Positions 527-61,600 of a stretch of DNA of 64,000 nucleotides are shown piece by piece. The notes under the pieces were generated by a model. It ran no database searches, was not told where the DNA came from, and saw nothing but the letters and a program-made list of their open reading frames with translations. Every line of letters begins with the position of its first letter. Position 1 is the first letter of the stretch. The position numbers were made by a program, and so were the translations under genes. Origin of the DNA: Eledone cirrhosa (Eukaryota); contig OZ024741.1 of NCBI GenBank assembly GCA_964016885.1, positions 10,602,001-10,666,000 on the forward strand, written 5' to 3'.

Positions 527-2425
527 TCACGACCTGGGTTAGTAGTCATTACCTCGGTTAGTAGTCCTTACCTGGCTTAGTAGTCTCGACCTGGATTAGT
601 AGTCAATACCTGGGTCAGTAGTTACTACCTGGGTTAGTAGTCAATACCTGGGTCAGTAGTCACGACCTGGGTTAGTAGTCACGACATGGGTTAGTAGTCA
701 CTCCCTGGATTACGTGTCATGACCTGGGTCAGTAGTCATGACTTGGGTTAGTAGTCACGACCTGGGGTAGTAGTCACGACCTGGGTTAGCAGTCACGACC
801 TGGGTCTGTAGTCACTACCTGGGTTAGCAGTCACGACCTGGGTTAGTAGTCCTACCTGGGTTAGTAGTCAGGACCTGGGTTAGTATTCACTACCTGGGTT
901 AGTTGTCACTACCAGGGTAAGTAGTCACGACCTAGGTTAGTAGTCCCTACCTGGGTTAGTAGTCACGACCTGGGTTACTAGACACAACCTGGGTTAGTAG
1001 TCACTAAATGGGTTAGTAGTCACGACCTGGTTTAGTATTCATGATCTGGGTTAGTAGTCACTACCTGGTTTAGTAGTCACGACTTGGATCAGTAGTCACT
1101 ACCTGGTTTAGTAGTCTTTACCTGGATCAGTAGTTACGACCTGGGTTAGTAGTCACTAGCTGGGTTAGTATACACTACCTGGGTTAGTAGTCACTACCTG
1201 GGTCAGTAGTCACTACCTGGGTTAGTAGTCACTACCTGGGTCAGTATTCACTACCTGGGTTAGTAGTCGTTAACTGGGTTAGTATTCACTACCTGGGTTA
1301 CTAGTCACGACCTGGGTTAGCAGTCACTACCTAGGTTATTAGTCATTACCTGGGTTAGTAGTTACTACCTGGGTTAGTAGTCACGAGCTGGTTTAGTAGT
1401 CACGACCTGGGTTTGTAGTCACTACCTGGCTTATTAGTCATTACCTCTGTTAGTAGTTACTATCTGGGTTAGTAGTCACGACCCCGGTTAGTAGGAACTA
1501 CCTGGATCAGTAATCATTACCTGGGTTATTAGTCATTACCTGGATTAGTATTACAACCTGGGTTAGTAGTCACTACCAGGATCAGTAGTCACTACCTGGG
1601 TTAGTAGTCACTACCTGGGTTACTAGTCACGACCTGGTTTATTAGTCACGACCTGGGTCAGTAGTCGCTACCTGGGTCAGTAGTCACTAGCTGGGTTAGT
1701 ATTTACTACCTGTGTTAGTTTTCACTACCTGGGTTAGTAGTCACTAGCTGGGTTAGTATTTACTACCTGTGTTAGTTTTCACTACCTGGGTCAGTAGTCA
1801 CTAGCTGGGTTAGTATTTACTACCTGTGCTAGTTTTCACTACCTGGGTTAGTAGTCACTAGCTGGGTTAGTATTTACTACCTGTGTTAGTTTTCACTACC
1901 TGGGTTAGTAGTCACTAGCTGGGTTAGTATTTACTACCTGTGTTAGTTTTCACTACCTGGGTTAGTAGTCACGACCTGGGTCAGTATTCACTACCTGGGT
2001 TAGTAGTCACGACCCGGGTTAGTAGTCATTAACTGGGTTAGTATTCACGACCTGGGTTAGTAGTCCCGGCCTGGGTTAGTAGTCACTAGCTGGGTTAGTA
2101 TTCACGACCTGGGTTAGTAGTCACGATCTGGGTTAGTAGTCATTACCTGGGTTAGAAGTAAACGACCTGGGTTAGTAGTCACTAGCTGGGTTAGTAGTCA
2201 CTACCTGGGTTAGTAGTCACGACCTGGGTTAGTAGTCACGCCCTGGGTTAGTATTCACTACCTGGGTTACTAGACACGACCTGGTTTAGTAGTGACTACC
2301 TTGGTTAGCAGCCACGACCTGGGTTAGTAGTCACTACCTGGGTTAGTAGTAAACGACCTGGGTTAGTAGTCACTATCTGGGTTAGTAGTCGTTACCTGGT
2401 TTACTATTCACTACCTGGGTTAGTT
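527..2425. repeat. Minisatellite, 20-bp unit (ACCTGGGTTAGTAGTCACG/T type)
   Basis: About 95 tandem copies with 20-bp period; a 60-bp (3x20) higher-order block is repeated about 5 times at ~1680-1965. Confidence 0.95.
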
Positions 2426-5400
2426 ACACCAATCTACATCGCACCAAGCTATTGATCTGGGTGTGAAAAGTTTTCTTCCCGTTTCTTTTTTTTTTTTGTT
2501 TGTGTGCTTAACACCCAATCTGACATTAAAGGTGCTCCCAATTGACTATTTTTTTTCCACTTATCAATAATTATGACATGGAAACCTGATGAAAATGACT
2601 AGCTTTGTAGAAAAAAGAGGGAGAATGTGGGTGGAAATACCATTTACAAAGCTAGCCATTTTTTATTGCAGCGGAAGTCATATTTTTTGTTAATATGTTA
2701 AAAGCATAGTCCACTGTGAGCATCTTGTAAGTTGATAGCACATGCAAAAATGAAGGAAATATTTTTTTTCTAACATAAATCAAAGTGGAAATTTAAATCC
2801 TCACTTATAACAAAGCACACCACAGCACATTAATCTACCCCAATTCACACCATATACTTCTCTATATGGTAAATTTATTACAGAACACCTACTACCATTT
2901 ACATCACACCATGGTATGGAGATCAATGTGACAAATTTTCTACCGTCTTTTTATTTTTGGGGGTAACCACCTCAAACTAACATCAAAGGTGCTTGCAAAT
3001 GACTATTTTCCCACACATTATCATTGAATATGACATGGGAATCTATCGTTTACAATTGGTTTCCATTTCATAACTTCACGAAACCAAACCAAACCACACC
3101 AAACCAAGATACACCATACTACATCACACCAAGCTATTGATCTTGGTGTGAAACATTTTCTTCCCGTTTCCTTTTTTTTTTTGTGTGTGTGCTTACCACC
3201 CAATCTGACATTAAAGGTGCTCCCAATTGACTATTTTTTTTTCCACTTATCAATAATTGTGACATGGAAACCTATCGAAAATTACTATCTTTGTAGAAAC
3301 TTCACCAAACCACACCATACTACATCACACCAAGATATTGCTTTTGGCGTGACAAATTTTCAACTGGCATTTAAAAATTTTTTTTTAATTTTGATTTTGT
3401 GCTTAATTTGACATAAAAGGGGCTCGCAAATTACTATTTTATGCACATATTATTAATGGTTATGACATGGAAACCTGATGAAAATGACTAGCTTTGTAGA
3501 AAAAAGAGGGAGGATGTGGGTGGAAATACCATTTACAAAGCTAGCCATTTTTTATTGCAGCGGAAGTCATATTTTTTGTTAATATGTTAAAAGCATGGTC
3601 CATTGCGAGCATCTTGGAAGTTGATAGCATATGCAAAAATGAAGGAAACATTTTTTTTCTAATATAAATCAAAGTGGAAATTTAAATCCTCACTTATAAC
3701 AAAGCACACCACAGAACATTAATCTACCCCAATCCACACCATAAATTCACGATAACCATACTTCACTATATGGTAAATTTATTACAGAACACCATGGTAT
3801 GGAGATCAATGTGACAAGTTTGCTACCTGCTTTATTTTTTTTTTTTTGTGGTTACCACCTCAAACTAACATCAAAGGTGCTTGCAAATGACTATTTTCCC
3901 ACACATTATCAGTGAATATGACATGGGAATCTATCGTTTACAATTGGTTTCCATTTCATAACTTCACTAAACCAAACCAAACCACACCATACCAAGTTAC
4001 ACCATACTACATCGCACCAAGCTATTGACCTTGGTGTGAAACATTTTTTTCCCGTTTCCTTTTTTTGTTTTCTGTGTGCTTACCACCCAATCTGACATTA
4101 AAGGTGCTCCCAATTTACTTTTTTTTTTCACATATCAATAATTATGAAACGCAAACCTGTCGAAAATGACTATCTTTGTAGAAACTTCACCAAACTACAC
4201 CATACTAGATCACACCAAGTTATTGATTTTGGTGTGACAAATTTTCATCTGGCATTTTTTCTTTTTCCTTTTTTTTGTGCTTACCACCCAATTTGACATA
4301 AAAGGAGCTCGCAAATTACTATTTTATGCACATATTATCAATGGTTATTACATGGAAACCTGATGAAAATGACTAGCTTTGTAGAAAAAAGAGGAAGGAT
4401 GTGGGTGGAAATACCATTTACAAAGCTAGTCATTTTTTATTGCAGTGGAAGTCATATTTTTTGTTAATATGTTAAAAGCATAGTCCACTGCGAGCATCTT
4501 GGAAGTTGATAGCACATGCAAAAATGAAGGAAAAATGTTTTTTCTAACATAAATCAAAGTGGAAATTTAAACCCTCACTTATAACAAAGCACACCACAGC
4601 ACATTAATCTACCCCAATTCACACCATATACTTCTCTATATGGTAAATTTATTACAGAACACCTACTACCATTTACATCACACCATGGTATGGAGATCAA
4701 TGTGACAAATTTTCTACCGTCTTTTTATTTTTGGGGGTAACCACCTCAAACTAACATCAAAGGTGCTTGCAAATGACTATTTTCCCACACATTATCATTG
4801 AATATGACATGGGAATCTATCGTTTACAATTGGTTTCCATTTCATAACTTCACGAAACCAAACCAAACCACACCAAACCAAGATACACCATACTACATCA
4901 CACCAAGCTATTGATCTTGGTGTGAAACATTTTCTTCCCGTTTCCTTTTTTTTTTGTGTGTGTGCTTACCACCCAATCTGACATTAAAGGTGCTCCCAAT
5001 TGACTATTTTTTTTTCCACTTATCAATAATTGTGACATGGAAACCTATCGAAAATTACTATCTTTGTAGAAACTTCACCAAACCACACCATACTACATCA
5101 CACCAAGATATTGCATTTGGTGTGACAAATTTTCAACTGGCATTTAAAAATTTTTTTTTAATTTTGATTTTGTGCTTAATTTGACATAAAAGGGGCTCGC
5201 AAATTACTATTTTATGCACATATTATTAATGGTTATGACATGGAAACCTGATGAAAATGACTAGCTTTGTAGAAAAAAGAGGGAGGATGTGGGTGGAAAT
5301 ACCATTTACAAAGCTAGCCATTTTTTATTGCAGCGGAATTCATATTTTTTGTTAATATGTTAAAAGCATGGTCCATTGCGAGCATCTTGGAAGTTGATAG

Positions 5401-8400
5401 CATATGCAAAAATGAAGGAAACATTTTTTTTCTAATATAAATCAAAGTGGAAATTTAAATCCTCACTTATAACAAAGCACACCACAGAACATTAATCTAC
5501 CCCAATCCACACCATAAATTCACGATAACCATACTTCACTATATGGTAAATTTATTACAGAACACCATGGTATGGAGATCAATGTGACAAGTTTGCTACC
5601 TGCTTTATTTTTTTTTTTTTGTGGTTACCACCTCAAACTAACATCAAAGGTGCTTGCAAATGACTATTTTCCCACACATTATCAGTGAATATGACATGGG
5701 AATCTATCGTTTACAATTGGTTTCCATTTCATAACTTCACTAAACCAAACCAAACCACACCATACCAAGTTACACCATACTACATCGCACCAAGCTATTG
5801 ACCTTGGTGTGAAACATTTTTTTCCCGTTTCCTTTTTTTGTTTTCTGTGTGCTTACCACCCAATCTGACATTAAAGGTGCTCCCAATTTACTTTTTTTTT
5901 TCACATATCAATAATTATGAAACGCAAACCTGTCGAAAATGACTATCTTTGTAGAAACTTCACCAAACTACACCATACTAGATCACACCAAGTTATTGAT
6001 TTTGGTGTGACAAATTTTCATCTGACATTTTTTCTTTTTCCTTTTTTTTGTGCTTACCACCCAATTTGACATAAAAGGAGCTCGCAAATTACTATTTTAT
6101 GCACATATTATCAATGGTTATTACATGGAAACCTGATGAAAATGACTAGCTTTGTAGAAAAAAGAGGAAGGATGTGGGTGGAAATACCATTTACAAAGCT
6201 AGTCATTTTTTATTGCAGTGGAAGTCATATTTTTTGTTAATATGTTAAAAGCATAGTCCACTGCGAGCATCTTGGAAGTTGATAGCACATGCAAAAATGA
6301 AGGAAAAATGTTTTTTCTAACATAAATCAAAGTGGAAATTTAAACCCTCACTTATAACAAAGCACACCACAGCACATTAATCTACCCCAATCCACACCAT
6401 ATACTTCACTATATGGTAAATTTATTACAGAACATCTACTACCATTTACATCACACCATGGTATGGAGATCAATGTGACAAATTTGCTACCTGCTTTTTT
6501 TTTTTTTGTGGTTACCACCTCAAACTAACATCAAAGGTGCTTGCAAATGACTATTTTCCCACACATTATCAATGAATATGACATGGGAATCTATCGTTTA
6601 CAATTGGTTTCCATTTCATAACTTCACAAAACCAAACCAAACCACACCAAACCAAGATACACCATACTACATCACACCAAGCTATTGATCTTGGTGTGAA
6701 ACATTTTCTTCCCGTTTCCTTTTTTTTTGTGTGTGTGTGCTTACCACCCAATCTGACATTAAAGGTGCTCCCAATTGACTATTTTTTTTTCCACTTATCA
6801 ATAATCGTGACATGGAAACCTGTCGAAAATTACTATCTTTGTAGAAATTCACCAAACCACACCATACTACATCACACCAAAATATTGCTTTTGGTGTGAC
6901 AAATTTTCAACTGGCATTTAAAAAATTTTTTTTTATTTTGATTTTGTGCTTAATTTGACATAAAAGGTGCTCGCAAATTACTATTTTATGCACATATTAT
7001 TAATGGTTATGACATGGAAACCTGATGAAAATGACTAGGAGGATGTGGGTGGCAATACCATTTACAAAGCTAGCCATTTTTTATTGCAGCGGAAGTCATA
7101 TTTTTTGTTAATATGTTAAAAGCATAGTCCACTGCGAGCATCTTGGAAGTTGATAGCATATGCAAAAATGAAGGAAACATTTTTTTTCTAATATAAATCA
7201 AAGTGGAAATTTAAATCCTCACTTATAACAAAGCACACCACAGCACATTAATCTACCCCAATCCACACCATAAATTCACGATAACCATACTTCACTATAT
7301 GGTAAATTTATTACAGAACACCATGGTATGGAGATCAATGTGACAAGTTTGCTACCTGCTTTATTTTTTTTTTTTGTGGTTACCACCTCAAACTAACATC
7401 AAAGGTGCTTGCAAATGACTATTTTCCCACACATTATCAGTGAATATGACATGGGAATCTATCGTTTACAATTGGTTTCCATTTCATAACTTCACTAAAC
7501 CAAACCAAACCACACCATACCAAGTTACACCATACTACATCGCACCAAGCTATTGACCTTGGTGTGAAACATTTTTTTCCCGTTTCCTTTTTTTTTGTGT
7601 GTGTGTGCTTACCACCCAATCTGACATTAAAGGTGCTCCCAATTGACTATTTTTTTTCACATATCAATAATTATGAAACGCAAACCTGTCGAAAATGACT
7701 ATCTTTGTAGAAACTTCACCAAACTACACCATACTAGATCACACCAAGTTATTGATTTTGGTGTGACAAATTTTCATCTGGCATTTTTTCTTTTTCCTTT
7801 TTTTTGTGCTTACCACCCAATTTGACATAAAAGGAGCTCGCAAATTACTATTTTATGCACATATTATCAATGGTTATTACATGGAAACCTGATGAAAATG
7901 ACTAGCTTTGTAGAAAAAAGAGGAAGGATGTGGGTGGAAATACCATTTACAAAGCTAGTCATTTTTTATTGCAGTGGAAGTCATATTTTTTGTTAATATG
8001 TTAAAAGCATAGTCCACTGCGAGCATCTTGGAAGTTGATAGCACATGCAAAAATGAAGGAAAAATGTTTTTTCTAACATAAATCAAAGTGGAAATTTAAA
8101 CCCTCACTTATAACAAAGCACACCACAGCACATTAATCTACCCCAATCCACACCATATACTTCACTATATGGTAAATTTATTACAGAACATCTACTACCA
8201 TTTACATCACACCATGGTATGGAGATCAATGTGACAAATTTGCTACCTGCTTTTTTTTTTTTTGTGGTTACCACCTCAAACTAACATCAAAGGTGCTTGC
8301 AAATGACTATTTTCCCACACATTATCAATGAATATGACATGGGAATCTATCGTTTACAATTGGTTTCCATTTCATAACTTCACAAAACCAAACCAAACCA

Positions 8401-11400
8401 CACCAAACCAAGATACACCATACTACATCACACCAAGCTATTGATCTTGGTGTGAAACATTTTCTTCCCGTTTCCTTTTTTTTTGTGTGTGTGTGCTTAC
8501 CACCCAATCTGACATTAAAGGTGCTCCCAATTGACTATTTTTTTTTCCACTTATCAATAATCGTGACATGGAAACCTGTCGAAAATTACTATCTTTGTAG
8601 AAATTCACCAAACCACACCATACTACATCACACCAAAATATTGCTTTTGGTGTGACAAATTTTCAACTGGCATTTAAAAAATTTTTTTTTTATTTTGATT
8701 TTGTGCTTAATTTGACATAAAAGGTGCTCGCAAATTACTATTTTATGCACATATTATTAATGGTTATGTCATGGAAACCTGATGAAAATGACTAGGAGGA
8801 TGTGGGTGGCAATACCATTTACAAAGCTAGCCATTTTTTATTGCAGCGGAAGTCATATTTTTTGTTAATATGTTAAAAGCATAGTCCACTGCGAGCATCT
8901 TGGAAGTTGATAGCATATGCAAAAATGAAGGAAACATTTTTTTTCTAATATAAATCAAAGTGGAAATTTAAATCCTCACTTATAACAAAGCACACCACAG
9001 CACATTAATCTACCCCAATCCACACCATAAATTCACGATAACCATACTTCACTATATGGTAAATTTATTACAGAACACCATGGTATGGAGATCAATGTGA
9101 CAAGTTTGCTACCTGCTTTATTTTTTTTTTTTTTGTGGTTACCACCTCAAACTAACATCAAAGGTGCTTGCAAATGACTATTTTCCCACACATTATCAGT
9201 GAATATGACATGGGAATCTATCGTTTACAATTGGTTTCCATTTCATAACTTCACTAAACCAAACCAAACCACACCATACCAAGTTACACCATACTACATC
9301 GCACCAAGCTATTGACCTTGGTGTGAAACATTTTTTTCCCGTTTCCTTTTTTTGTTTTCTGTGTGCTTACCACCCAATCTGACATTAAAGGTGCTCCCAA
9401 TTTACTTTTTTTTTTCACATATCAATAATTATGAAATGCAAACCTGTCGAAAATGACTATCTTTGTAGAAACTTCACCAAACTACACCATACTAGATCAC
9501 ACCAAGTTATTGATTTTGGTGTGACAAATTTTCATCTGGCATTTTTTCTTTTTCCTTTTTTTTGTGCTTACCACCCAATTTGACATAAAAGGAGCTCGCA
9601 AATTACTATTTTATGCACATATTATCAATGGTTATTACATGGAAACCTGATGAAAATGACTAGCTTTGTAGAAAAAAGAGGAAGGATGTGGGTGGAAATA
9701 CCATTTACAAAGCTAGTCATTTTTTATTGCAGTGGAAGTCATATTTTTTGTTAATATGTTAAAAGCATAGTCCACTGCGAGCATCTTGGAAGTTGATAGC
9801 ACATGCAAAAATGAAGGAAAAATGTTTTTTCTAACATAAATCAAAGTGGAAATTTAAACCCTCACTTATAACAAAGCACACCACAGCACATTAATCTACC
9901 CCAATCCACACCATATACTTCACTATATGGTAAATTTATTACAGAACATCTACTACCATTTACATCACACCATGGTATGGAGATCAATGTGACAAATTTG
10001 CTACCTGCTTTTTTTTTTTTTGTGGTTACCACCTCAAACTAACATCAAAGGTGCTTGCAAATGACTATTTTCCCACACATTATCAATGAATATGACATGG
10101 GAATCTATCGTTTACAATTGGTTTCCATTTCATAACTTCACAAAACCAAACCAAACCACACCAAACCAAGATACACCATACTACATCACACCAAGCTATT
10201 GATCTTGGTGTGAAACATTTTCTTCCCGTTTCCTTTTTTTTTGTGTGTGTGTGCTTACCACCCAATCTGACATTAAAGGTGCTCCCAATTGACTATTTTT
10301 TTTTCCACTTATCAATAATCGTGACATGGAAACCTGTCGAAAATTACTATCTTTGTAGAAATTCACCAAACCACACCATACTACATCACACCAAAATATT
10401 GCTTTTGGTGTGACAAATTTTCAACTGGCATTTAAAAAATTTTTTTTTTATTTTGATTTTGTGCTTAATTTGACATAAAAGGTGCTCGCAAATTACTATT
10501 TTATGCACATATTATTAATGGTTATGACATGGAAACCTGATGAAAATGACTAGGAGGATGTGGGTGGCAATACCATTTACAAAGCTAGCCATTTTTTATT
10601 GCAGCGGAAGTCATATTTTTTGTTAATATGTTAAAAGCATAGTCCACTGCGAGCATCTTGGAAGTTGATAGCATATGCAAAAATGAAGGAAACATTTTTT
10701 TTCTAATATAAATCAAAGTGGAAATTTAAATCCTCACTTATAACAAAGCACACCACAGCACATTAATCTACCCCAATCCACACCATAAATTCACGATAAC
10801 CATACTTCACTATATGGTAAATTTATTACAGAACACCATGGTATGGAGATCAATGTGACAAGTTTGCTACCTGCTTTATTTTTTTTTTTTTTGTGGTTAC
10901 CACCTCAAACTAACATCAAAGGTGCTTGCAAATGACTATTTTCCCACACATTATCAGTGAATATGACATGGGAATCTATCGTTTACAATTGGTTTCCATT
11001 TCATAACTTCACTAAACCAAACCAAACCACACCATACCAAGTTACACCATACTACATCGCACCAAGCTATTGACCTTGGTGTGAAACATTTTTTTCCCGT
11101 TTCCTTTTTTTGTTTTCTGTGTGCTTACCACCCAATCTGACATTAAAGGTGCTCCCAATTTACTTTTTTTTTTCACATATCAATAATTATGAAACGCAAA
11201 CCTGTCGAAAATGACTATCTTTGTAGAAACTTCACCAAACTACACCATACTAGATCACACCAAGTTATTGATTTTGGTGTGACAAATTTTCATCTGGCAT
11301 TTTTTCTTTTTCCTTTTTTTTGTGCTTACCACCCAATTTGACATAAAAGGAGCTCGCAAATTACTATTTTATGCACATATTATCAATGGTTATTACATGG

Positions 11401-12604
11401 AAACCTGATGAAAATGACTAGCTTTGTAGAAAAAAGAGGAAGGATGTGGGTGGAAATACCATTTACAAAGCTAGTCATTTTTTATTGCAGTGGAAGTCAT
11501 ATTTTTTGTTAATATGTTAAAAGCATAGTCCACTGCGAGCATCTTGGAAGTTGATAGCACATGCAAAAATGAAGGAAAAATGTTTTTTCTAACATAAATC
11601 AAAGTGGAAATTTAAACCCTCACTTATAACAAAGCACACCACAGCACATTAATCTACCCCAATCCACACCATATACTTCACTATATGGTAAATTTATTAC
11701 AGAACATCTACTACCATTTACATCACACCATGGTATGGAGATCAATGTGACAAATTTGCTACCTGCTTTTTTTTTTTTTGTGGTTACCACCTCAAACTAA
11801 CATCAAAGGTGCTTGCAAATGACTATTTTCCCACACATTATCAATGAATATGACATGGGAATCTATCGTTTACAATTGGTTTCCATTTCATAACTTCACG
11901 AAACCAAACCAAACCACACCAAACCAAGATACACCATACTACATCACACCAAGCTATTGATCTTGGTGTGAAACATTTTCTTCCTATTTCCTTTTTTTTT
12001 TTGTGTGTGTGTGTTTACCACCCAATCTGACATTAAAGGTGCTCCCAATTGACTATTTCTTTTCCACTTATCAATAATTATGACATGGAACCCTGTCGAA
12101 AATGACTATCTTTGTAGAAACTTCACCAAACCACACCATACTACATCACACCAAGATATTGATTTTGGTGTGACAAATTTTTTTTTATTTTTGTAATTTT
12201 TATTTTGTGCTTAATTTGACATCAAAGGTGCTCGCAAATTACTATTTTATGCACATATTATTAATGGTTATGACATGGAAACCTGATGAAAATGACTAGC
12301 TTTATAGAAAAAAGAGGGAGGATATGAGTGGAAATACCCTTTACAAAGCTAGCTATTTTTTATTGCAGCGGAAGTCATATTTTTGTTAATATGTTAAAAG
12401 CATAGTCCATAGTTGTGGTTACCATCTCAAACTAACATCAAAGGTGCTTGCAAATGACTATTTTCCCACACATTATCAATGAATATGACATGGGAATCTA
12501 TCGTTTACAATTGGTTTCCATTTCATAACTTCACCAAACCAAACCAAACCACACCATACCAAGTTACACCATACTACATCGCACCAAGCTATTGATCTTG
12601 GTGT
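2425..12604. repeat. Satellite array, ~870-890 bp monomer, alternating A/B monomers forming a ~1.76-1.77 kb higher-order dimer
   Basis: Anchor GTGAAACATTTT recurs at ~3148, 4036, 4922, 5808, 6696, 7564, 8452, 9323, 10210, 11081 and 11969. Identical spurious ORFs recur at 6569, 8325 and 10083. About 11.5 monomers. Confidence 0.95.
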
Positions 12605-13681
12605 CTGCTCAGCCTGGGTTGTTCCCTATGGCTTGAGGGGACTTCACAACCTAGGGTGTTGTTACTATTATTTTGCCAACATCTATATAACACAAACACA
12701 TTTTAATTTACTTGATTTCTGATTTTCAAGTTCCAATTTTAAATCTTGATTTCTCTTTATTAATTTGTTATTTGTTTTCTCCCCTCTTCACTGTATCACC
12801 TTATATTTATTTTTAAGTTGAGATTGATTATAACACAAACACATTTTGTTTGATTATCTTATTTTAACATCTTTAATCCTCATACCAACTATCCAACATA
12901 TTTCTGACCTTGAGATTGGTTATAGCACACACACACTTTATCCTACTTTATTTGAATCTTCATTTTATTTTTCACTTCTCCATATTCATTTTCATTACTT
13001 TTTCACCAATTTTTCTTTATTCTTTATTCTTTATTCTCTATTTATTATTTATTTTCAAATTATACAAATTATATTATTTATTTTCTGTTTTCTTCATTTA
13101 TTGCCTTATATTTCTTCATATACATGGAAGAACTCACCCCCCCCCCCACCACCACCACCACTATGAGAGATGGTGGCAGGAGGGATGAAGAAAAAACACA
13201 CACTGGATACTTCTAAATTGTCAGCAGCAGCAAGACATAAGCTGACCACAACACCAACAACACTACCAAAATAATGGTAGAGGTCAAATGTACTTAACAA
13301 TAGCAAACACAAACACTACAGGGAGCCTCACCCCAGAAAGAATTCTATAGACTTCTGACTGAGGAATGCTCTCAGAACTGACCAATGGGAAGTTTGACAC
13401 TTTTTTTGTTATTTTGTTCCTTTAACACCTTGTCTCTTCTACCACTTTATCAATTTTTTAAGCTAACTCCAACAATAACAACACTTAGAATGAGGAATGT
13501 TCTAACAACTGACCAATGAGAGGAGAAGAGGCCCTTTGACACTGAAATTCGTTTGTTTGAATTCATATGATTCCAGTTCCTCAGTGAAATAACAACCCAA
13601 CCAGGAACTGGGCATATCAGAGTATTGACAAAATTATACACCTCAACAACATATGTACTTGTCTATACCACACTAATTCAG

Positions 13682-13736
13682 ACTGCCTGAAGAGGTCACA
13701 GCCAAAGATGGCTGTCACTGAAATATATATAGCAGT
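13682..13736 (+). ncRNA. Minimal type-I hammerhead ribozyme motif (PLE pseudo-LTR type)
   Basis: ACTGC-CTGAAGA-GGTCACAGCC(AAAGAT)GGCTGTCACT-GAAA-TATATATA-GCAGT. Stem I ACTGC/GCAGT, intact core, palindromic stem III with AUA site, immediately followed by AATAAA (13737-13742). Confidence 0.8.
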
Positions 13737-14121
13737 AATAAACGAAGCTAAATTTTAAACATTTGACTTTTTATTTAACTTTATTTTACATTACTCCGGA
13801 GTAACCAAACCAACCTGCGCACTTCGTCGAGTGCTCCAGCCTGCATACTGAGATGTTGGTATACAACCATCATATACTCAAAATCTCTCTATATATATAT
13901 TTAATAATTGTCTATAATAGACAATTATTAACTATATAAATAAATAAATAAATAAATGCCATTGTTAATTAACAAATTTAATTAACTAATACCTTAACAC
14001 TTCACACAAAGTAAAATATTTTGTTTTAAACATTTTCTAACCCAGAAAAAAGAGAAGAAAATAAAAGGAAAAAAAAAAATTTTTCTTCCTAATAATCGTC
14101 TTTTTCTCCCTATTTTCATAC

Positions 14122-14202
<81 letters not shown>

Positions 14203-14205
<3 letters not shown>

Positions 14206-14396
14206 CGGGGGAAATGTGGTAAGGAACCAGGTGGACCGTAACGCACCAAAGTACTCAATACTTAGGGTAGTAGAGTGGGTAATAGGAACGAGTAGGACCC
14301 CGACGGCTGAGCTCAAGCCGTTTCGACGGCTAATTCTGGACGTCCAGAATTAGCCGTCGAAACGGCTTGAGCTCAGCCGTCGGGGTCCTACTCGTT

Positions 14397-14401
<5 letters not shown>
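14203..14401 (-). mobile_element. Short (TA)n-embedded element end with a 120-bp perfect palindrome and the 3' half of a hammerhead
   Basis: 14282-14401 is a zero-spacer palindrome centred on GGAC|GTCC. It contains GAAAC-GGCT-TGAGCTC-AGCC-GTC (HHR stem III with GUC site). Homologous copy at 61431-61600. Confidence 0.65.
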
Positions 14402-14443
<42 letters not shown>

Positions 14444-14473
14444 ACTTGTGTGCTCCTTCTCCACATTTTATAA

Positions 14474-14507
<34 letters not shown>

Positions 14508-14511
<4 letters not shown>

Positions 14512-14976
14512 GCGAAATCTGTCCACGCCTTGAACCCTGGGTGACACCTAAAAGTCAAATTCTAGGTCACCATCCTCTTTGGTGTGGACAGGTTCATTCG
14601 TGAGCTATCCCTTCGAGGTGGGAGACAGAAAGCGACAGGTATATAAAGCCTGTATATTCCCATGTTTTACACAGAGCGATTGGAGCAGTACACTATTACA
14701 AGTTATGTGAAAGATTCACCGCATTACAAGCTATGTGAAAGATTCACCGCTACCTTCAGGCCGCAGAGGTCTACAGACCATTACTCTCTCTCTCCTGGTC
14801 TCAGACTTCACCAGCCTCATGAACCAACAACAAAATAACATTGTCAACCTTCGCAACTCGTGGTAACTTGTTTATTGTTCTTTTTGACTAAAGTGAAGTA
14901 AACCTTTTTATATATGAAGTAATTCAGCTATTCTTGTTATTACATCTAACAATATCTATTAATACCCTTCGTTACA
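14508..14976 (+). mobile_element. Solo LTR of an LTR retrotransposon inserted in (TA)n
   Basis: Begins TGTAGCGAA and ends TTCGTTACA (TG...CA with short terminal inverted repeat). Internal TATATAAAG (~14640) and AGTAAA (~14897). No ORF. Confidence 0.7.
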
Positions 14977-15007
14977 TATATATATGTATATAGATATATA
15001 TATATGT

Positions 15008-17798
15008 GATATGAGAAGACGTGACAGAGTGTCTGTTGTAAACACTAAATCCCTCCCCCATGAAGAATGCACCTCCCAACATAGACTGATAATTAGCGAC
15101 CTCATAGTCAGGACGAGACGTACTCGACAGCAGAAGAGGACTATCCTCAGGAGAAAAATATGGAAGCTAAAGGACTCCACAGCCAGAAATAAATTTAAAA
15201 GCATATTACTTGTTGCTTTCGACAGTAAGGAAGAGCATTTAGAGTCGTACAATATAGAGGAACAGTGAGAATTCCTGAAAGCAAACCTGCTGATGGCGGC
15301 AGACGAAGTCTGTGGCTGGAGCAGGCCTATAGACAAGAGGAGAGTAACATGGTGGTGGAACAGTAAGGTGGAGGGGTCAATTAAGGCCAAAAAGCAGGCT
15401 TGGAAAGTATGGCGGGATGGGGGAAGTAGAGAAGACTATTACGTGGCCAGGAGGGAAGCTAGGAGACAAGTGTACTTCGCAAGAAGGGAAGCAGAGGAAA
15501 GAAAGTTCAAGCATGTTCTACAACGCGAGGACCAAAAACGTGAGGTGTTCAGGATTGCTAGGCAATGTGTCAAGGAAAACCGTGATATTGTCGGGGAGAA
15601 GTGTGTACTTAATGATGATGGTGTACTTGCCATCACTGACGCTGATAAGAAGGTAGCTTGGAAGTGTCACTACGAAAGGCTACTAAATGAGGAGAATAAA
15701 TGGGAGAAAGACAGTCTCCCCCACATCGACCCAATAGAGGGACCAACAGTGTTTGTCGAAGGTAGTATAATAAGTAAGGCAATCAAAGATATGAAGACGG
15801 GTAAGGCGGCTGGGCCTTCGGAAATAGTTGCTGAAATGCTGAAAGCCTCTGGAACGGTGGGACACACCATGGTCTCCCGGATAGTAAACCAAGTCATACA
15901 GAATGGGGTTGTTCCGAAGGACTGGCGTAGCAGCATCATCATTAACTGCTACAAGGGTAAAGGAGATGCCCTAGATAGGAGTAACTATAGAGGCATTAAA
16001 TTAATCGACCAGGTCATGAAGGTCACAGAAAAAGTAATAGCGCAACTAATCAGAGAGAGAATTGATCTAGATGAAATGCAGTTCGGGTTTTTGTCAGGCA
16101 AAAGTACCACGCTCTTTTCATTGTACGACAACTACAGGAGAAGTACCTAGCTAAAAGTAAACCCCTATACTTAGCTTTTGTCGACTTGGAGAAAGCCTTC
16201 GACAGAGTACACCGTTCCATTATCTGGTGGGCTCTTAGAAAACTAGGTGTTGATGAATGGCTTGTGAGAGCTATACAAGCCATGTATAAAGAAACAGTCA
16301 GCAAGGTTAGAATTAACAACGAATATAGTGAAGAGTTTAGCGTAAAAGTTGGTGTTCATCAGGACTCCGTTATTAGTCCGCTACTATTTATTATTGCCCT
16401 TCAGGCTATAACAGAGGAGTTCAAGACCGGCTGCCCATGGGAACTCCTATACACAGATGATCTAACGCTCATAGCTGAATCAATGGCTGAACTAGAGAAG
16501 AAATTCCAAACATGGAAGCATGGCCTAGAATCAAAAGGCCTTAAAATTAACCTGTCTAAGACTAAAGTTCTAGTTTGTAGGAAAGAAAATAAGGCGCCGG
16601 TCCCATCCGGGAAATGGCCATGTTCAGTGTGTAGGAAAGGAGTAGGTAGAAACTCCATTTTATGTCCCAAATGCAAAGTATGGATGCATAAAAGATCTAG
16701 TGGGATCACAGGTAAGCTAACTAAGAACATAGATTTTATGTGGCCGGTGCTCTGGTGCAATAAGTAGCAGCAAGTGCCCACAAAATACTAGCTCTTTCAA
16801 TTGCACAGATGGTTCTATAGAAATAGTGGACAGCTTCCGTTACCTGGGTGACAAAATCAGCAGTGGGGGAGGGTGCTCTGAAAGTACAGTAGCTAGAGTC
16901 AGAACTGGTTGGAAAAAGTTCAGAGATCTTATACCACTATTAACCGCTAAAGGGTTTTCCCTAAAAATGAAAGGCAGGCTGTATGATACCTGCATACGAA
17001 CAGCAATGTTGCATGGCAGTGAGACCTGGGCATTGTGTGCAGAGGATATACGCAGACTAGAGAGGAACGAAGCTTGCATGCTCCGCCGGATGTGTAATAG
17101 TAATATACGTGAACGGCAAAGCATAAACGAACTAAGGGAAAAATTAGAAATAAGAGGGATCAGATGTTGTTTACTCGAGAGAAGGCTACGTTGGTACGGT
17201 CACGTGATGCGCATGAAAGACGACAGCTGTATAAAAAAGTGCAGGGCAATAAAAATAGACGGTAGCCACGGAGTAGGCAGATCCAGAAAAACCTGGGTCG
17301 ACTTGATAAATTCCGACCTCACACACTTACACCTCTCCAAGACAATGTCACTGGACCGAGATCTTTGGCGCTACACAGTAATAGAGAAGACCCGCCTTAC
17401 CTAAATACAAAGTAAAACCTACTACAGTCATTAAACACCTCTAACAAAATACACCCCCGTCCCACTAGCCCTACCCCATCCACACCACCCCTTTCAATGT
17501 AAAGTTATGTTGGTACCACAACATCCAGGCCGAAACAAATGAGGTCGTGTAGGTGTCACGACAAAAAAACACACAGTCCACGCTGTAATGTGGCCGTGTA
17601 GGTAACACGGTAAAAACCTCCCAGTTCCACACTGTAAATGTGGTTGGTGTTAGGAAGGGCATCCATCCGTAGAAAACCCGCCAGACAGTCCTATTCGAGC
17701 AAGACAACCACTCTTGCCTCAAGTGGGAAAACTCCCGTCCAAACCCATGCAAGCGTGGAATATGGACGTTAAACGATGATGATGATGATGAAGATGAT
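15008..17798 (+). mobile_element. 5'-truncated, decayed RTE-clade LINE (APE C-terminus, RT, C-terminal domain, 3'UTR, (GAT)n tail)
   Basis: ORF pieces contain SQHRLIISDL (APE end), KGKGDALDRSNYRGIKL, QFGF, EKAFDRV, GVHQDSVISPLLF, YTDD, FRYLG and MLHGSETW. Split by stops and frameshifts. 3' end ...GGACGTTAAAC(GAT)n. Confidence 0.9.
15293..17404 (+). pseudogene. Disrupted RTE reverse transcriptase ORF
   Basis: Three consecutive ORF fragments (15293-16150, 16186-16767, 16826-17404) in different frames carry successive RT motifs. Confidence 0.85.
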
Positions 17799-17813
17799 GT
17801 GTGTGTGTGTGTG

Positions 17814-17900
17814 CAGTATATACTCAAATATAAGCCGAGGATTATGGGACCGAAAAATCAATGGTAGAAAGGGGATTCGGCTTATATTCAGCATCAATAT
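17814..17900 (+). mobile_element. Possible left end of a pogo/Tigger-type MITE
   Basis: CAGTATATACTCAAATATAAGCCGAG with the internal complement CGGCTTATATTC resembles pogo-like MITE termini. No clear matching right terminus. Confidence 0.3.
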
Positions 17901-19469
17901 TTTGACGATTTTCAATGAAAGCAAAACATCGTTTATTTCCGTATTACTACCACGCGTAAGTGGAGTTACTTGGTAGTAATACGGAAATAAACGATGACGA
18001 ATGACGTCACCTTCGCCTGCTTTCACGACTGACAGCTATATATCACGTGAACACAATCACATTATTCTTTCAAAAGGAAAGGTCTGGCGCCATTTTTCTC
18101 CAGTGTTAATGTTAATGTTAACAAACGCAGGAGAACAGAATAAACAGCATTACAACTTATATCCACATTAATGATGACAAATTGTAAAAGCAAAAGATAA
18201 GAAAATGTAAGTAATATCAAATAATTATTAAAAAGTGTTGAATTTAAAAACGTTCAGTCTGACGGCTGAGTTATGTATATGTATGTTACAGTCGCATTAC
18301 ACGAATAATTAAGTTTCATACATACATATATATGTATGTATATATATGTATTTTATTTTATGAAAGCGCACCATAATTTGCCTTGGTGGCCCTTGAAATA
18401 TGTATAATAAAATAAATATGGTTTTATAAATATTTATTAATATATTGTATATATATATATATATATGTATTAGAATTGGTGCTCGGAAATAGCTATATAT
18501 ATATGAATGTATATACAGTGTATTTTGCAATACACTGTATGCTTAATTAAAAGCATTTCGAAGACCTTATGCTATTGTTTTAGAGTAGTGACAGACTCAC
18601 TTATTTTAATTTCAGCAAACAGGGGGAGAGATAAAGCTGAAATTATTATGTTGATTTGTCACGAACCTTAAGATAATCCTTATTCCCTATAAATAACTGT
18701 AATCGAATTGCATGCATACACATATATATATACATACACAATTCCCACATATACATACATATACGTACGCACACAAATAGGTAGATATGCATCACATATA
18801 TATATATACATACAGATACATATACACGCATAAAACATACGTACACGTATATCAATACACACATATATATAGATACACACATATAGAGAGAGAAATATAT
18901 ATAAATACAGTACATAGTATAATTGAAGTACATAAAATACAAAAGAATTATGTTAGGATTTGGAAGTATAATTATAAGCAATATAAATTTAAAACAATAT
19001 ATCTTTAAAAATATTATAGAATATTTCAAGTTATAATTTTAAAATATGTTTAATAAATTTAGTATAACATTTTCTGCGTATATTTAACTTAATTTTATAT
19101 CCATAAGAGAAAGAAAAATAAACCTTCAAAAGATAAACTTTGGAAAATAGGAGAAACTATCAAAAAATGTTTTCCCCTCTTAATAGCTTTCAGTATATTT
19201 CTCTAGAAGATTTTATTATATTTATTTATATTTCGGAAGAAATGTTTTTTTTACTTGAGTGTATAAGCAGGAATCTAATGAAGGAATCTAATGATTTATC
19301 GATAGGTTCAATATATCAATAGAATTAATTAATTAATTATATATTACATTTTAAATTTATATGTAAATGTTGAGTTCAATCTATGTCTACAGCAACTGAA
19401 TAAATTGTTCCCTAAGTTCAGGGAATTTTTGGTCTTTAATATAAAGAATATTTCCTCTATACAAAGATG

Positions 19470-22354
<2,885 letters not shown>

Positions 22355-28763: not shown

Positions 28764-29417
28764 AAAACAAATAACGAAACGAAATTAAATTTCGTTTCGT
28801 TTGTAACTCACTTTTGTATGACTGACGCTTAAACAATTAAGTTAAAGATGTACATCCATATATGTATACTGAAATACTAGTATGTATATGAATACACACA
28901 CGTATACATATGTAGATGTACCAAGTTTTTTCACTGGTCACTTTACTGTGAGTGGCCAGCTATTCTGTATGTAAACACACAGACAAACCGGTTTTTAGAG
29001 TCATACTGGTTTTTGAGGAAACACCTTTCCTCTATTCTCCAGAAAGCCAGACAAGGAATATTGAACTAGTTTCGTTGTTGTTACAACTCATCAGCAATAT
29101 TTACCTATCTTCCGGCCTTTCTAGAGAATCATAAAAGTACATATCGTTATATGCTTTTTCTATGAAAATTAGTAGTGGGCAGACTAATTTGCATAGAGTG
29201 TGAGTAAGTACCGGTTCAACGGAGACGATAAAAACAAATAACGAAACGAAATTAAATTTCGTTTCGTTTGTAACTCACTTTTGTATGACTGACGCTTAAA
29301 CAATTAAGTTAAAGATGTACATCCATATATGTATACTGAAATACTAGTATGTATATGAATACACACACGTATACATATGTAGATGTACCAAGTTTTTTCA
29401 CTGGTCACTTTACTGTG
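28764..29417 (-). mobile_element. Retrozyme-like / non-autonomous PLE: 467-bp unit in a 1.4x partial tandem with a hammerhead
   Basis: 187-bp direct repeats at 28764-28950 and 29231-29417 flank a core containing a canonical HHR. No meaningful ORF. Flanked by TA/TATG repeats. Confidence 0.75.
29057..29101 (-). ncRNA. Minimal type-I hammerhead ribozyme
   Basis: Minus strand: AATATTG-CTGATGA-GTTGT(AACA)ACAAC-GAAAC-TA-GTT-CAATATT. 7-bp stem I, perfect core, 5-bp stem II, palindromic ACTAGT stem III, GUU site. Confidence 0.88.
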
Positions 29418-43390: not shown

Positions 43391-43714
43391 TCGAAATATA
43401 ATACGTGAATGTAATAGATAAAATCCATGGGGCTGAAAATCGAGGACCCGAGGGCGACCGCTATTCTGTTCCTTCAACCTCAGCCGGTCGCTCTCGAGTG
43501 ACGTGGCTAAATTTTATAGTATGCTACTACCGGTCAGATAAACGAAAACAGAAAGGGATGGGAACATAGATTAACGTCAATCTCATGACACAAGGTAAAA
43601 GAAAGAAAGAAAGGAACGAGAGAGAAGGGGGAAGAAAGAAGAGAAGCCAGGCTTAACCCTGGCTTCTCTTCTTCTTTCTTCCCCCTTCTTCTCTCTCCTT
43701 CCTTTCTTTCTTTC

Positions 43715-46700
43715 TGTCCAAGTTGCCATCGGGACCGAAGACGCAGCAAAGGTTGCCAAGGAAACTGTTTACGGTTCCAAAACCAAGCAAGTCTACAAGG
43801 TCCAGCTGAACAAGAACAATGGTCCTCGAAAGAACCATCAGCAGTCTTATTCCACAGACCAGGAGATGTGCTACCGATGTGGAAAGGCCCACAAAGCAAC
43901 AGACTGCCCCTTCAAAGAAGCCAAATGTCATTTTTGTGACAAAAAGGGACATTTGCAAGCGGTGTGTAGAAAGAAACAATATCAGCAACGTGATCATCGC
44001 TCACAGAATTACGTGAAAAGAATCACGAAAGCTGAGCTAGTCAAGGCGATCCTTGGTGAAGTTCCCCACGATACTCATAGTTTGAATGTGCCAATAACAA
44101 TCCAGAACAGACTTTTCACAATGGAATTGGACATAGCTACTACAGGCAATTTTGTTTCCTTGTCAGTTTGGAAACAATTAGGAAAACCGAAGCTGCAATA
44201 TGTCAAACATCGCTTTGAATCTGCCAGCAAGCACGACCTGCCCGTTCTGGGAACTTTCATGGGCCAAACCAAGGATCCAACGACCGGTAAACGGAATGCA
44301 ATACTCTACATCGTCACCAAGATCCCTGATCTTAATTTGCTGGGACGAAACGCTATCCAGACTCTGGAAATTTCCGTGGACAATGCTCTAGGATTGAAAA
44401 GCATAGACAGCCAGGCCAAGAGTGAGGGTGCAGAAGCGATGCATCCAAAGACCTCAAATGAGCCCTATATTTCCATGCAACGAGATTGTCACATGTGTGA
44501 TGAATTCCCAGATCTCTTCAATCAAGAATTGGGATGTCTTAATGACTTCGAACTGGAAGTGAAGTTCAAGTCGGACGCGACACCGGTCTTTCATAAGACA
44601 CGCTCGGTCCCGTTTGCTCTTCGTGATGACCTGGCCAAAGGTTACGAAGAAGGCATCGCCAAAGGAATCTGGAAGCCAATACAGTTCAACCAATACGGAA
44701 CGCCAGTGGTACCGATTCGTAAAGCACATACTTCAGGCAACCTGAAGCCCAAACTACGGATTTGTGGTGACTACTCTGTGGGAATTAATGACCAACTTGC
44801 AGATCATCGTCATCCAATGCCACTCCCAGAGGAACTGATGCAGAAGCTCGGGGGTGGATTCGGATACACAAAGATTGATCTTGCTGATGCCTATAATCAG
44901 ATCAAGCTGGCTCGCACTCAGCACTCACCGTGGGGTGCTCCTGCAGGAACGACTCCCTTTCGGAATCAAGTCAGCACCTGGTTACTTTCAGGAGATCATG
45001 GAAAACCTGACTCAAGATCTACCTGGTGTGGCCGTCTTCCAGGACGACATGCTCGTCAGTGGGAAAGATGCAAACGATCACCTGAACAACCTAAAGTGTC
45101 TGCTCACACGTCTGTGCGACAAAGGACTCAGATGTCGCCGTGACAAGTGCCAGTTTGCACTACCCAGTGTGGAATACCTTGGACACACCTTGTCGGCTGA
45201 AGGGATCGCGAAGGGATCCAAGGTCGAAGCAGTTTCAAAGATGCCACCTCCAACGAACGTCTCAAGCTTGAAGTCTTTCCTGGGTTCAGTTCAGTTCTAT
45301 GGAAAGTTTATCCCAAACCTGGCCAGCATGGCAGAGCCACTCTATTGCCTTACGAAAAAAACGACTACTTGGAAGTGGGGAGATGAAGAACAGTCAGCTT
45401 TCGATCAGTCGAAAAATGTGCTTTCATCGGATCGAGTTCTGATACACTTCGATCCAAACAAAACTTTGGGACTGGCTTGCGACGCGTCAAACGTTGGTAT
45501 TGGAGCAGTCCTGTTTCATCGCTATCCTGATGGAAGCGAGCGCCCAATATCCAATGTGTCCAAGACTCTTACTTCTGCACAGCGTAACTACGGATAAATT
45601 CAAAAGGAAGCCCTGGCCATCATATTTGGCTTGCAGAAGTTCTATCAGTATCTGTACGGACATCAGTTTATACTCGTAACTGACCACAAGCCACTGACAT
45701 CACTGTTCAGTCCGAGGAAAGGGACGCCACTTCTCGCTGCTAACCGACTAGCACGGTGGGCCCTGTGGCTAAACCAGTTTGACTACATCATCGAATATCG
45801 GAAAACAGCGGATCATGGCAATGCAGATGCCCTCAGTCGCTTGCCATTTGGTAATGACTTTGACAGGAAGGAAAATGGTGAAGACATGGACATGGTGTGC
45901 GCCATCAAAGCTCTGTCTTCAAGTCCAACCTATCGATGCTAACGTCCTCCGTCAAGAGTCAGGGAAAGATCCAGTGATATCTACAGTGATACGCTACGTC
46001 CGTGAAGGCTGGCCACCAAAGAATACTGAGATCAATGACGAAGTCAATAAGTTCCGGAAGTTATCGGATTCACTCAGTATCTGCCACGGATGCCTTATCC
46101 ATGGATCGAGAGTTGTGATTCCACATAGCTTACAGCCAAAGATCCTCAATCTTCTGCATCTCGGACACTTTGGCATGGAGCGCATGAAACAATTGGCAAG
46201 AACTGCTGTTTATTGGCCTGGTATCGATGCTGCTATAGAGAAAACCAGTCGACAATGTGATTTGTGTGGTGAACATCAAAACCAGCCATCCAAGTCTCCA
46301 GTTCACCCATGGATGTTACCTGAAAAGCCGTGGAGCCGCTTACACCGGGACCACGCAATAAATTTCATGGGCAGTAATTGGTTGGTGATCACGGATGCTT
46401 ATTCAAATATCCATGCATTCATCCTACGTCATCCACGTCCTCCAGAGCCACTTTAGATCTGCTTGAAGAAGACTTTGCGCACTTCCGATTTCTTCACACG
46501 CTAGTCACCGATAACGCACCAACTTTTGTTTCTGAGGAGTTCCAGAGCTGGTGCAAAGAATGTGGGATCACGCACCTGACAGGGGCACCTTACCACCCAG
46601 CTACCAACGGAGCAGCGGAACGTTTGGTGCAGACCTTCAAACAAGCTCTGAGGAAGACTTCTCTTCCGCCGAAGCGAGCACTTCAAGAGTTCTTGATGCA

Positions 46701-47952: not shown

Positions 47953-48152
47953 NNNNNNNNNNNNNNNNNNNNNNNNNNNNNNNNNNNNNNNNNNNNNNNN
48001 NNNNNNNNNNNNNNNNNNNNNNNNNNNNNNNNNNNNNNNNNNNNNNNNNNNNNNNNNNNNNNNNNNNNNNNNNNNNNNNNNNNNNNNNNNNNNNNNNNNN
48101 NNNNNNNNNNNNNNNNNNNNNNNNNNNNNNNNNNNNNNNNNNNNNNNNNNNN
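47953..48152. other. Assembly gap (200 N)
   Basis: Run of N. Confidence 1.
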
Positions 48153-55100: not shown

Positions 55101-55401
55101 TATAAAGAAAAAGGGATGAAATCGAAAATGCAACTGAAGTCTTATTTTTTTAAAAATATATATATTTATTTGGTTCCTTTACCGGTTTCGCAGTTCTTCT
55201 GCTTTTCAAAAGGTGAGTTGAGATGGAGGGTCTGTGGTTTTTCTCACATCTGATGTGAGAAAAACCACAGACCCTCCATCTCAACTCACCTTTTGAAAAG
55301 CAGAAGAACTGCGAAACCGGTAAAGGAACCAAATAAATATATATATTTTTAAAAAAATAAGACTTCAGTTGCATTTTCGATTTCATCCCTTTTTCTTTAT
55401 A
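55101..55401. repeat. Perfect 301-bp palindrome (150-bp arms, 1-nt spacer) from an HHR-bearing element end
   Basis: Centre CTCACATC-T-GATGTGAG at 55251. The left arm continues as unique sequence to ~55041; (TA)n on both sides. Confidence 0.93.
55289..55326 (+). ncRNA. Minimal hammerhead with compensatory U3:A8 core (mirror copy at 55176-55213, minus strand)
   Basis: CCTT-TTGAAAA-GCAG(AAGAA)CTGC-GAAAC-CG-GTA-AAGG, followed closely by AATAAA. Confidence 0.78.
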
Positions 55402-61430: not shown

Positions 61431-61432
<2 letters not shown>

Positions 61433-61596
61433 AGGAACCAGTAAGACCCCGACAGCTGAGCACAAGCCGTTTCGACGGCTAATTCTGGACTGCTAATTCG
61501 GTGTCTTACTGGTTCCTATTACCCACTCTACTACCTCAAGTATTGAGTACTTTGGTGCGTTATGGTCCACCTGGTTCCTTACCACATTTCCTTCGT

Positions 61597-61600
<4 letters not shown>
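61431..61600 (+). mobile_element. Second copy of the 14203-14401 fold-back element, with one arm partly deleted
   Basis: ATAGGAACCAGTAAGACCCC...AATTCTGGAC then ...GTCTTACTGGTTCCTATTACCCACTCTACTACC...CGTTA; (TA)n flanks. Confidence 0.8.

Follow-up and report, generated by a model that had tools for sequence, protein, structure and literature searches.

The inverted repeat at positions 14203-14401 of the window (the whole 64,000-nucleotide stretch of Eledone cirrhosa DNA analyzed here) is a stub of a (TA)n-targeting Penelope-like element (PLE) with Hydra-clade motifs, one of many thousands in this genome. Such an insertion probably consists of two cDNAs, primed by both nicked target strands at two fixed sites on one likely capped RNA, that ran off the template's 5′ terminus and were joined head to head. 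The proposal builds on what is observed in the genomic copies, i.e., their layout, fixed ends, common stop, extra G, pairing of a tailed with a tail-less arm, and a subfamily shared by both arms, to which we add a putative 5′ cap and a presumably single RNA. By itself, the window locus is ordinary.

As originally predicted, the core of the insertion is an exact palindrome of 60 + 60 bp with zero spacer (14282-14401, centered at 14341/14342). A 79-nt tail extends one arm on the − strand out to 14203, and the whole sits between (TA)n tracts (Table 1). In element coordinates, 0 is the last T of ..GTTCCTAT (window position 14401 on the + strand and 14282 on the − strand), the central G of GTCCAG is −59, and the tail runs from +1 to +79/80. 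The paralogue at 61431 had been described as turning at the same point, and its inverted arm indeed ends at the same ATAGGAAC, reaches the same point, and carries its own variants in both arms; the inverted arm is, however, the longer of the two (−60 versus −21).

Table 1. Coordinates of the palindromic insertion, its target, and its paralogue within the window
Feature	Position	Strand	Remark
Tail-less arm, element −59 to 0	14342..14401	+	Ends at the inner, putative RT start site, followed by (TA)n
Same 60 nt within the tailed arm (−59 to 0)	14282..14341	−	
79-nt tail	14203..14281	−	Ends at the outer, putative RT start site (..CGTTAT)
Head-to-head junction	14341..14342		Both arms 1 nt short of the putative transcription start (A at −60)
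Hammerhead 3′ half (stem II 3′ strand, GAAA, stem III, GUC, stem I 3′ strand)	14352..14387	+	GAAA 14359-14362; GUC 14379-14381; mirrored on the − strand
(TA)n target tract, left	14110..14202		Start approximate
(TA)n target tract, right	14402..14440		
Paralogous insertion	61431..61598		Other subfamily
Paralogue, tail-less arm	61431-61491	−	Reaches −60
Paralogue, filler	between 61491 and 61498		6 nt, templated
Paralogue, tailed arm	61498-61598	+	Starts at −21

Amplification is known to generate perfect palindromes with no spacer as artifacts and could have yielded this one as well. The mirror-image DNA at 14282-14401 was nevertheless confirmed as real and not due to chance, and an assembly chimera is unlikely, because the same junction recurs at 191 loci genome-wide (control, 0), in several subfamilies with differing flanks (15 loci viewed), and because the insertion is present three times, in a duplicated segment (7.2 kb at 96.8%) of this 3.0-Gb genome. 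A fold-back chimera arising in the library or the assembly is scarcely credible also in view of the aged and mismatched arms at these loci, the fixed and family-specific ends, and independent short-read contigs that traverse the center, with only 29 letters on one side, i.e., fewer than the 31 of the bridging rule. Within the window, the segment from 2300 to 19900 is duplicated at G000:C2 11.67 and 12.70 Mb and contains a tandem repeat of ~880/1770 bp (2.3 to 12.6 kb) and a decayed LINE ORF (15269-17404), which we take to be RTE-like from our own reading of its translation. There is also another hairpin at 43590-43720, with a 16-bp perfect core at 43636-43673, and a 200-N assembly gap at 47953-48152.

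The tail 23-mer has 20,260 exact matches genome-wide, and the tail-less end has 19,564. Longer copies run through a 1.2-kb 3′ region into an ORF, and tandem arrays with a period of 3.53 to 3.55 kb (unit of ~3.54 kb) form pseudo-LTRs (pLTRs); in these tandem parents, the tail continues into the ORF side (..TTAT/CTAG, a natural junction with 334 matches). The arrays hold open frames of 784 to 786 aa, with the first ATG ~170 nt after position 0. Motif inspection of the single ORF identified the RT motifs FDIESYY and YRDD together with a GIY-YIG endonuclease (VIY..YIG) at the C terminus, while Pfam and PDB searches with the same ORF gave 0 hits and no significant hit, respectively. The prediction of a PLE pLTR fragment with half a hammerhead was thus correct. 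A MITE or Helitron origin was rejected, since the ends correspond to the putative RT start sites of an RT-encoding parent. Near-identical head-to-tail arrays with three to four full units and intact ORFs (L307-L312) are likely recent sources, and other PLE families adjoin some copies (L064:5832-8319, L073:6385-8785, and L067:8265-8870).

A pLTR with an adjacent inverted 5′-truncated copy and a one-sided tail is the layout published for endonuclease-positive (EN+) PLEs, as far as the available text of PMC8557442 and PMC3846280 goes, and the inverted truncated copy and one-sided tail that define EN+ PLEs are present here. The insertion unit described there also shares with ours the head-to-head arms with a tail on one side, the junction palindromes, the tandem parents, and the microsatellite target. 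However, the published tail measures 30 to 40 nt versus 79 to 80 nt here, and, unlike in the published cases, most of our insertions halt at one fixed point with an extra G. By motif inspection, the protein carries RWR104, DKT184, CNCPDRSIC639, CNLCSEE737, and LNKKDELVTACKH755 and lacks GxKF/Y and CX2-5CxxC. Going by the portion of PMC8557442 available, our family agrees with the Hydra clade in the C-terminal position of the GIY-YIG, RWR in place of RWK, DKT, a CxCx5C linker, CxxC preceding E and CxH following N, the lack of GxKF/Y and CCHH, a single Cys in the GIY-YIG core, and the (TA)n target. On the other hand, the published unit is generally <3 kb versus 3.54 kb, and the hammerhead core of our family is U3-A8 or C3-A8 with a long stem II. 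With the canonical hammerhead missing from the pLTR, the filing within Hydra is provisional and rests on the protein motifs.

The 3′ half of a hammerhead (3′ strand of stem II, GAAA, stem III, GUC, and GGGG) is present in the window copy as the original prediction described it. The 5′ half is absent on both arms and the catalytic core is incomplete, so this copy cannot form a ribozyme. The missing half had been expected to be CUGAnGA, with CTGAnGA upstream of the stem in full-length copies, but none of the 78 long arms carries this canonical core; instead, positions −105 to −99 read UUGAGAA in 32, CUGAGAA in 32, UUGAUAA in 6, and other sequences in 8, i.e., the U3-A8 variant is found in 38 of the 78 and CUGAGAA in 32. 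CGAAA is conserved in 71 and GUC in 67 of the same arms. Fold-back points had been expected to pile up at the loop of stem II, with the turn at the tip of this stem. They do pile up at one point, but stem II is long, its loop lies at about −71 to −64, and the turn falls 5 to 12 nt 3′ of it. In 44 near-identical rows (94% identity), 95.6% of the cells of the hammerhead pair, with no compensatory change, and the three-way fold was the MFE structure in two of five parent copies. Rfam gave no hammerhead match at the window palindrome locus and no match on the intact parent pLTR.

The U3-A8 hammerhead is a known PLE variant (PMC4209133, available part), and the Schistosoma Cercyon hammerheads described there are type I, with a U3-A8 core, and located in the pLTR, as predicted for our family; ours differ in the long stem II, the 6-bp stem III, and the putative start site that splits the ribozyme. 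In several loci (L031, L057, L058, L064, L066, L215, and L224), the stem II loop at −73 to −66 reads AACATTTT, its reverse complement AAAATGTT, or AAAATTTT, often differing between the two arms of one insertion; this variation may mark a hot spot of micro-inversion or indicate that the templates differed. The window holds two further hammerhead motifs: a minimal type I hammerhead on the + strand (13682-13735), at another repeat end, with a canonical CUGAAGA, a 10-bp stem II, and a palindromic stem III (fold z = −2.6), and a motif on the − strand (29041-29112) that matches Rfam HH9 with 37.7 bits (E value of 6e-6), below the gathering score.

Arm ends were compared in 93 of the first 100 tail matches listed plus the first 30 tail-less ends, all within the first 25.5 Mb of a single chromosome (C1). 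Among these sampled loci, 132 arms extend as far as −53, of which 116 terminate between −53 and −64 and 16 are long. Shorter arms are excluded from this count by the anchor, close to which a mutation may mimic an early end. Both arms end within this zone in 38 of the 64 pairs with short junctions, and solo arms stop at the same point as paired ones; runs of A added to the cDNA mimic ends at −61 to −63. In the long arms (n = 78), the stop corresponds to an A at −60 within T(T/C)AGT, preceded 29 to 31 nt upstream by TATT(C/T)A, which we take to be Inr-like and TATA-like motifs, respectively. These motifs point to a putative transcription start at A−60, inside the pLTR, and an internal promoter in the pLTR has been reported for the Penelope element of D. 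virilis (PMC2377424, text available in part). Four of 30 ORF-attached loci start close to −60 and bear a short inverted arm (L258, L259, L263, and L285). Just upstream of the putative start, at about −76 to −71, one subfamily (L097, L102, L271, and L273) has AATAAA, a possible LTR-like polyadenylation signal, and others have GATAAA.

A second (TA)n-targeting family is represented in the window at 55101-55401 by a palindrome with 150-bp arms, a 1-nt spacer, and a tail reaching to about 55040. Each arm carries a complete U3-A8 hammerhead motif, and the center coincides with the start site predicted from a TATA box 30 nt before it. This family has 6,107 matches genome-wide, and the 96 arms fetched comprise 34 long and 62 short ones. 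Of the latter, 41 end within −1 to +4 of an A located 30 nt after a perfect TATAAAA, which therefore supports run-off at a start site; three arms show a minor stop at −11. The main stop of this second family lies ~35 nt upstream of its hammerhead, outside any of its stems, which argues against a reading of the −60 stop as a structural block to the RT or a site of RNA cutting or splicing. Such a reading, which we regard as very improbable, could draw on the position of the stop, which falls in the distal stem II helix on its 3′ strand, and on a sequence resembling a splice acceptor (TTTTCATTTAG). It conflicts with the long copies that pass through the helix, the TATA-like spacing, the extra G, and the heterogeneous upstream sequence. 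With no common exon or leader upstream, a splice or trans-splice acceptor was rejected as the cause of the stop. Cleavage at GUC was also rejected, because the ends would then fall at −19; in the 64 pairs there was no clear pile-up at the cut site and few ends nearby.

At −61, the long arms have T in 71 cases and C in 3. However, 3,903 arms genome-wide have a purine there (88 G and 12 A among the first 100 matches listed), and 9 of the 10 sampled arms that end exactly at −60 are preceded by G. Across 30 consecutive loci, 12 G and 3 A were not explicable by the partner arm or the flank, while 11 G and 4 A were. The extra G occurs on tailed and tail-less arms alike, and six insertions picked for a G on both arms (L287-L292) have 0 to 6 nt between them. 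The junction expected from annealing two GACTC cDNA ends was found at 423 loci, versus 191 for the zero-spacer junction. Since an extra G at full-length L1 5′ ends has been attributed to the cap (PMC11702581, partial text), the G seen here is, by analogy, presumably a cap-templated addition, although the RT could also have added it through a terminal-transferase preference where the end is uncapped. Against a capped run-off stand the window's own junction, which has no extra G, the G cases that can be read from the partner arm (11 of 23, about half), and the second family, in which the cap signature did not replicate, G preceding only three of eight informative arms among the 96 fetched, with no clear extra G.

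The two arms of an insertion are almost always of different kinds. A tail-less inverted partner accompanies 69 of the 103 tail ends, 2 others make up one tail-tail insertion, and for 32 none was found; the 31 tail-less ends include 26 that are paired with a tailed arm, none paired with a tail-less one, and 5 for which no partner was found. Thus, 69 of 70 insertions with inverted partners combine one tailed and one tail-less arm, although two tail-less/tail-less pairs in L067 speak against double priming. Both ends of the element read TAT at the (TA)n join. Three diagnostic sites agree between arms in 47, 48, and 46 of 48 pairs (24, 24, and 17 expected), and 45 of the 48 share the subfamily haplotype in both arms. 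The inverted arm had been proposed to be made or homogenized per insertion, and the shared haplotypes favor the first option. Ongoing homogenization was rejected: rare variants occur on one arm in 39 cases and on both in 8, 6 of the latter from a minor subfamily, so the arms age separately. Of the 23 pairs with a long arm (one duplicated locus included), 17 are long/long, 2 long/stop, and 4 long/shorter.

We propose that a promoter inside the pLTR would start a capped RNA at A−60, within stem II of the hammerhead, and the RNA end would therefore lack the 5′ half of the ribozyme. The GIY-YIG nuclease would then nick both (TA)n strands, each 3′ end pairing with UAU at position 0 or +80, and two RTs would copy 60 and 140 nt until they reach the cap, where a cap-templated C or a stretch of A would often be added. 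The two cDNA ends would be trimmed and joined via 0 to 5 nt of microhomology or filler, the zero-spacer junction being one outcome, and priming at the downstream pLTR of a tandem transcript would give the long/long pairs. Separate strand transfer of each short cDNA was rejected as the main route to long copies, given the scarcity of long/stop pairs relative to long/long ones. In several mini-tandems (L260 and L313-L316), a copy runs from near −60 (−44 in L316) into the ORF side and is joined to a second arm starting near −60, which suggests that a cDNA can switch from the 5′ end of the RNA to a site further inside and that ORF-side sequence is part of the template. We put forward more tentatively, as somewhat less than an even prospect, that double priming is obligate, with one protein dimer, both nicked strands, two fixed sites, and a single capped RNA. 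Every insertion would then start as two "strong-stop" cDNAs, most of them joined at the cap end into 200-bp hairpin stubs, while some would jump from the cap end to the RNA (as in L260 and L313-L316), seeding partial tandems and pLTRs in a retrovirus-like manner; the promoter would split the hammerhead so that the 5′ copy in the RNA cannot self-cut.

The arms could in principle derive from one cDNA. The original prediction invoked snap-back of the cDNA on the ribozyme hairpin, for which we found no support: the stop lies 3′ of the loop, the inverted arm is often longer, solo arms stop alike, G appears on both arms, and the junction predicted from snap-back on the distal stem II hairpin was found 0 times among all fetched loci. 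In another version, which dispenses with the ribozyme hairpin, the tail-primed cDNA would, on arriving at the end of the RNA, fold back over a few bases (through the RT or Pol theta) and serve as its own template before switching at TAT to the other (TA)n end. Self-priming was proposed earlier (PMC3846280, in the part available), and a fold-back accounts for the shared variants, the tailed/tail-less pairing, the long/long pairs, and the templated fillers at junctions. Yet a copy cannot exceed its template, and the tail-less arm is longer by at least 15 nt in 13 of 64 pairs versus 2 with a longer tailed arm (P = 0.007; some of the 13 may be later deletions, and L116 is an alignment artifact). 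Longer tail-less arms were also found in the window paralogue and in L066 (reaching −3302), L068 (−1462 versus +3), and L217 (−607 versus −8). There are, moreover, tail-less solo ends, and G occurs on tail-less arms and, with loops of 0 to 1 nt, on both arms. The frequently longer tail-less arm and the G on both arm types argue for two cDNAs over one folded back, which we consider improbable as a general route, although it may hold for a minority, perhaps zero-spacer junctions such as 14341/14342.

Two cDNAs could also have run off two RNA molecules held by the dimer, usually from one source locus. A PLE dimer has been predicted (PMC11167929, text available in part), one RT would not need to displace the cDNA of the other, and 7 of the 15 long pairs inspected have arms with unlike 8-nt stem II loops. 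This arrangement is unlikely, though, as it needs another reason for the near-obligate tailed/tail-less pairing (69/70) and for the 17 long/long versus 2 long/stop pairs, and the subfamilies match in 45 of 48 pairs. Priming on a single RNA, which we prefer, has difficulties of its own: its putative start site and cap are deduced from the DNA, a shared subfamily would be expected as well of two sister RNAs made at one locus, and, in addition to the loop differences, 3 of the 48 short pairs differ at one diagnostic site.

The inverted end plus tail was already known in PLEs; double priming with cap run-off is what we propose for it. In the available portions of the respective papers, self-priming on an antisense template was proposed for the junction palindromes (PMC3846280), nuclease resolution of an intermediate is the other published explanation of PLE ends (PMC8557442), and circular templates were proposed for the tandems (PMC4209133). 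In the texts covered by our literature search, we found no account of PLE double priming with run-off at the cap, although the older PLE reviews (2005 and 2006) may contain related proposals. The closest biochemical parallel is Poseidon_Ac, a PLE of the anole, which in vitro cuts and extends both strands, with RT starting at two internal sites that bound the tail and with no requirement for ribozyme cleavage (PMC11167929, partial text). Its target-primed reverse transcription (TPRT) resembles our proposal in the extension of both strands, the two internal start sites bounding the tail, the AT-rich target, and the use of uncleaved RNA. That text, in the part available, reports neither primer/start-site homology nor a preference of either site for one strand, and inverted arms are not among its subjects; in our family, TAT is common to the target and both sites, which are used as a pair. 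Twin priming of L1 is similar in that an inversion arises when primers on opposite strands act on a single RNA and in the extra G at full-length 5′ ends, but the L1 segments adjoin each other with hardly any overlap and the position of the second site varies (PMC11702581 and PMC10191854, both in part), whereas our family has two fixed sites and completely overlapping copies, resulting in a palindrome.

How PLE tandem and inverted repeats form has been named an open task (PMC8557442, available part). In the roughly 20,000 natural products of this Penelope-like family, the models can be told apart by signatures at the level of single bases: the fixed stop, the extra G on one arm or on both, the strict pairing of tailed with tail-less arms, a shared subfamily, and inverted arms that exceed their supposed template. 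These signatures argue against the published idea of self-priming, map a candidate start site from DNA, and lead to precise predictions for the in vitro system already established. If true, double priming would explain the long-puzzling inverted ends of Penelope-type elements.
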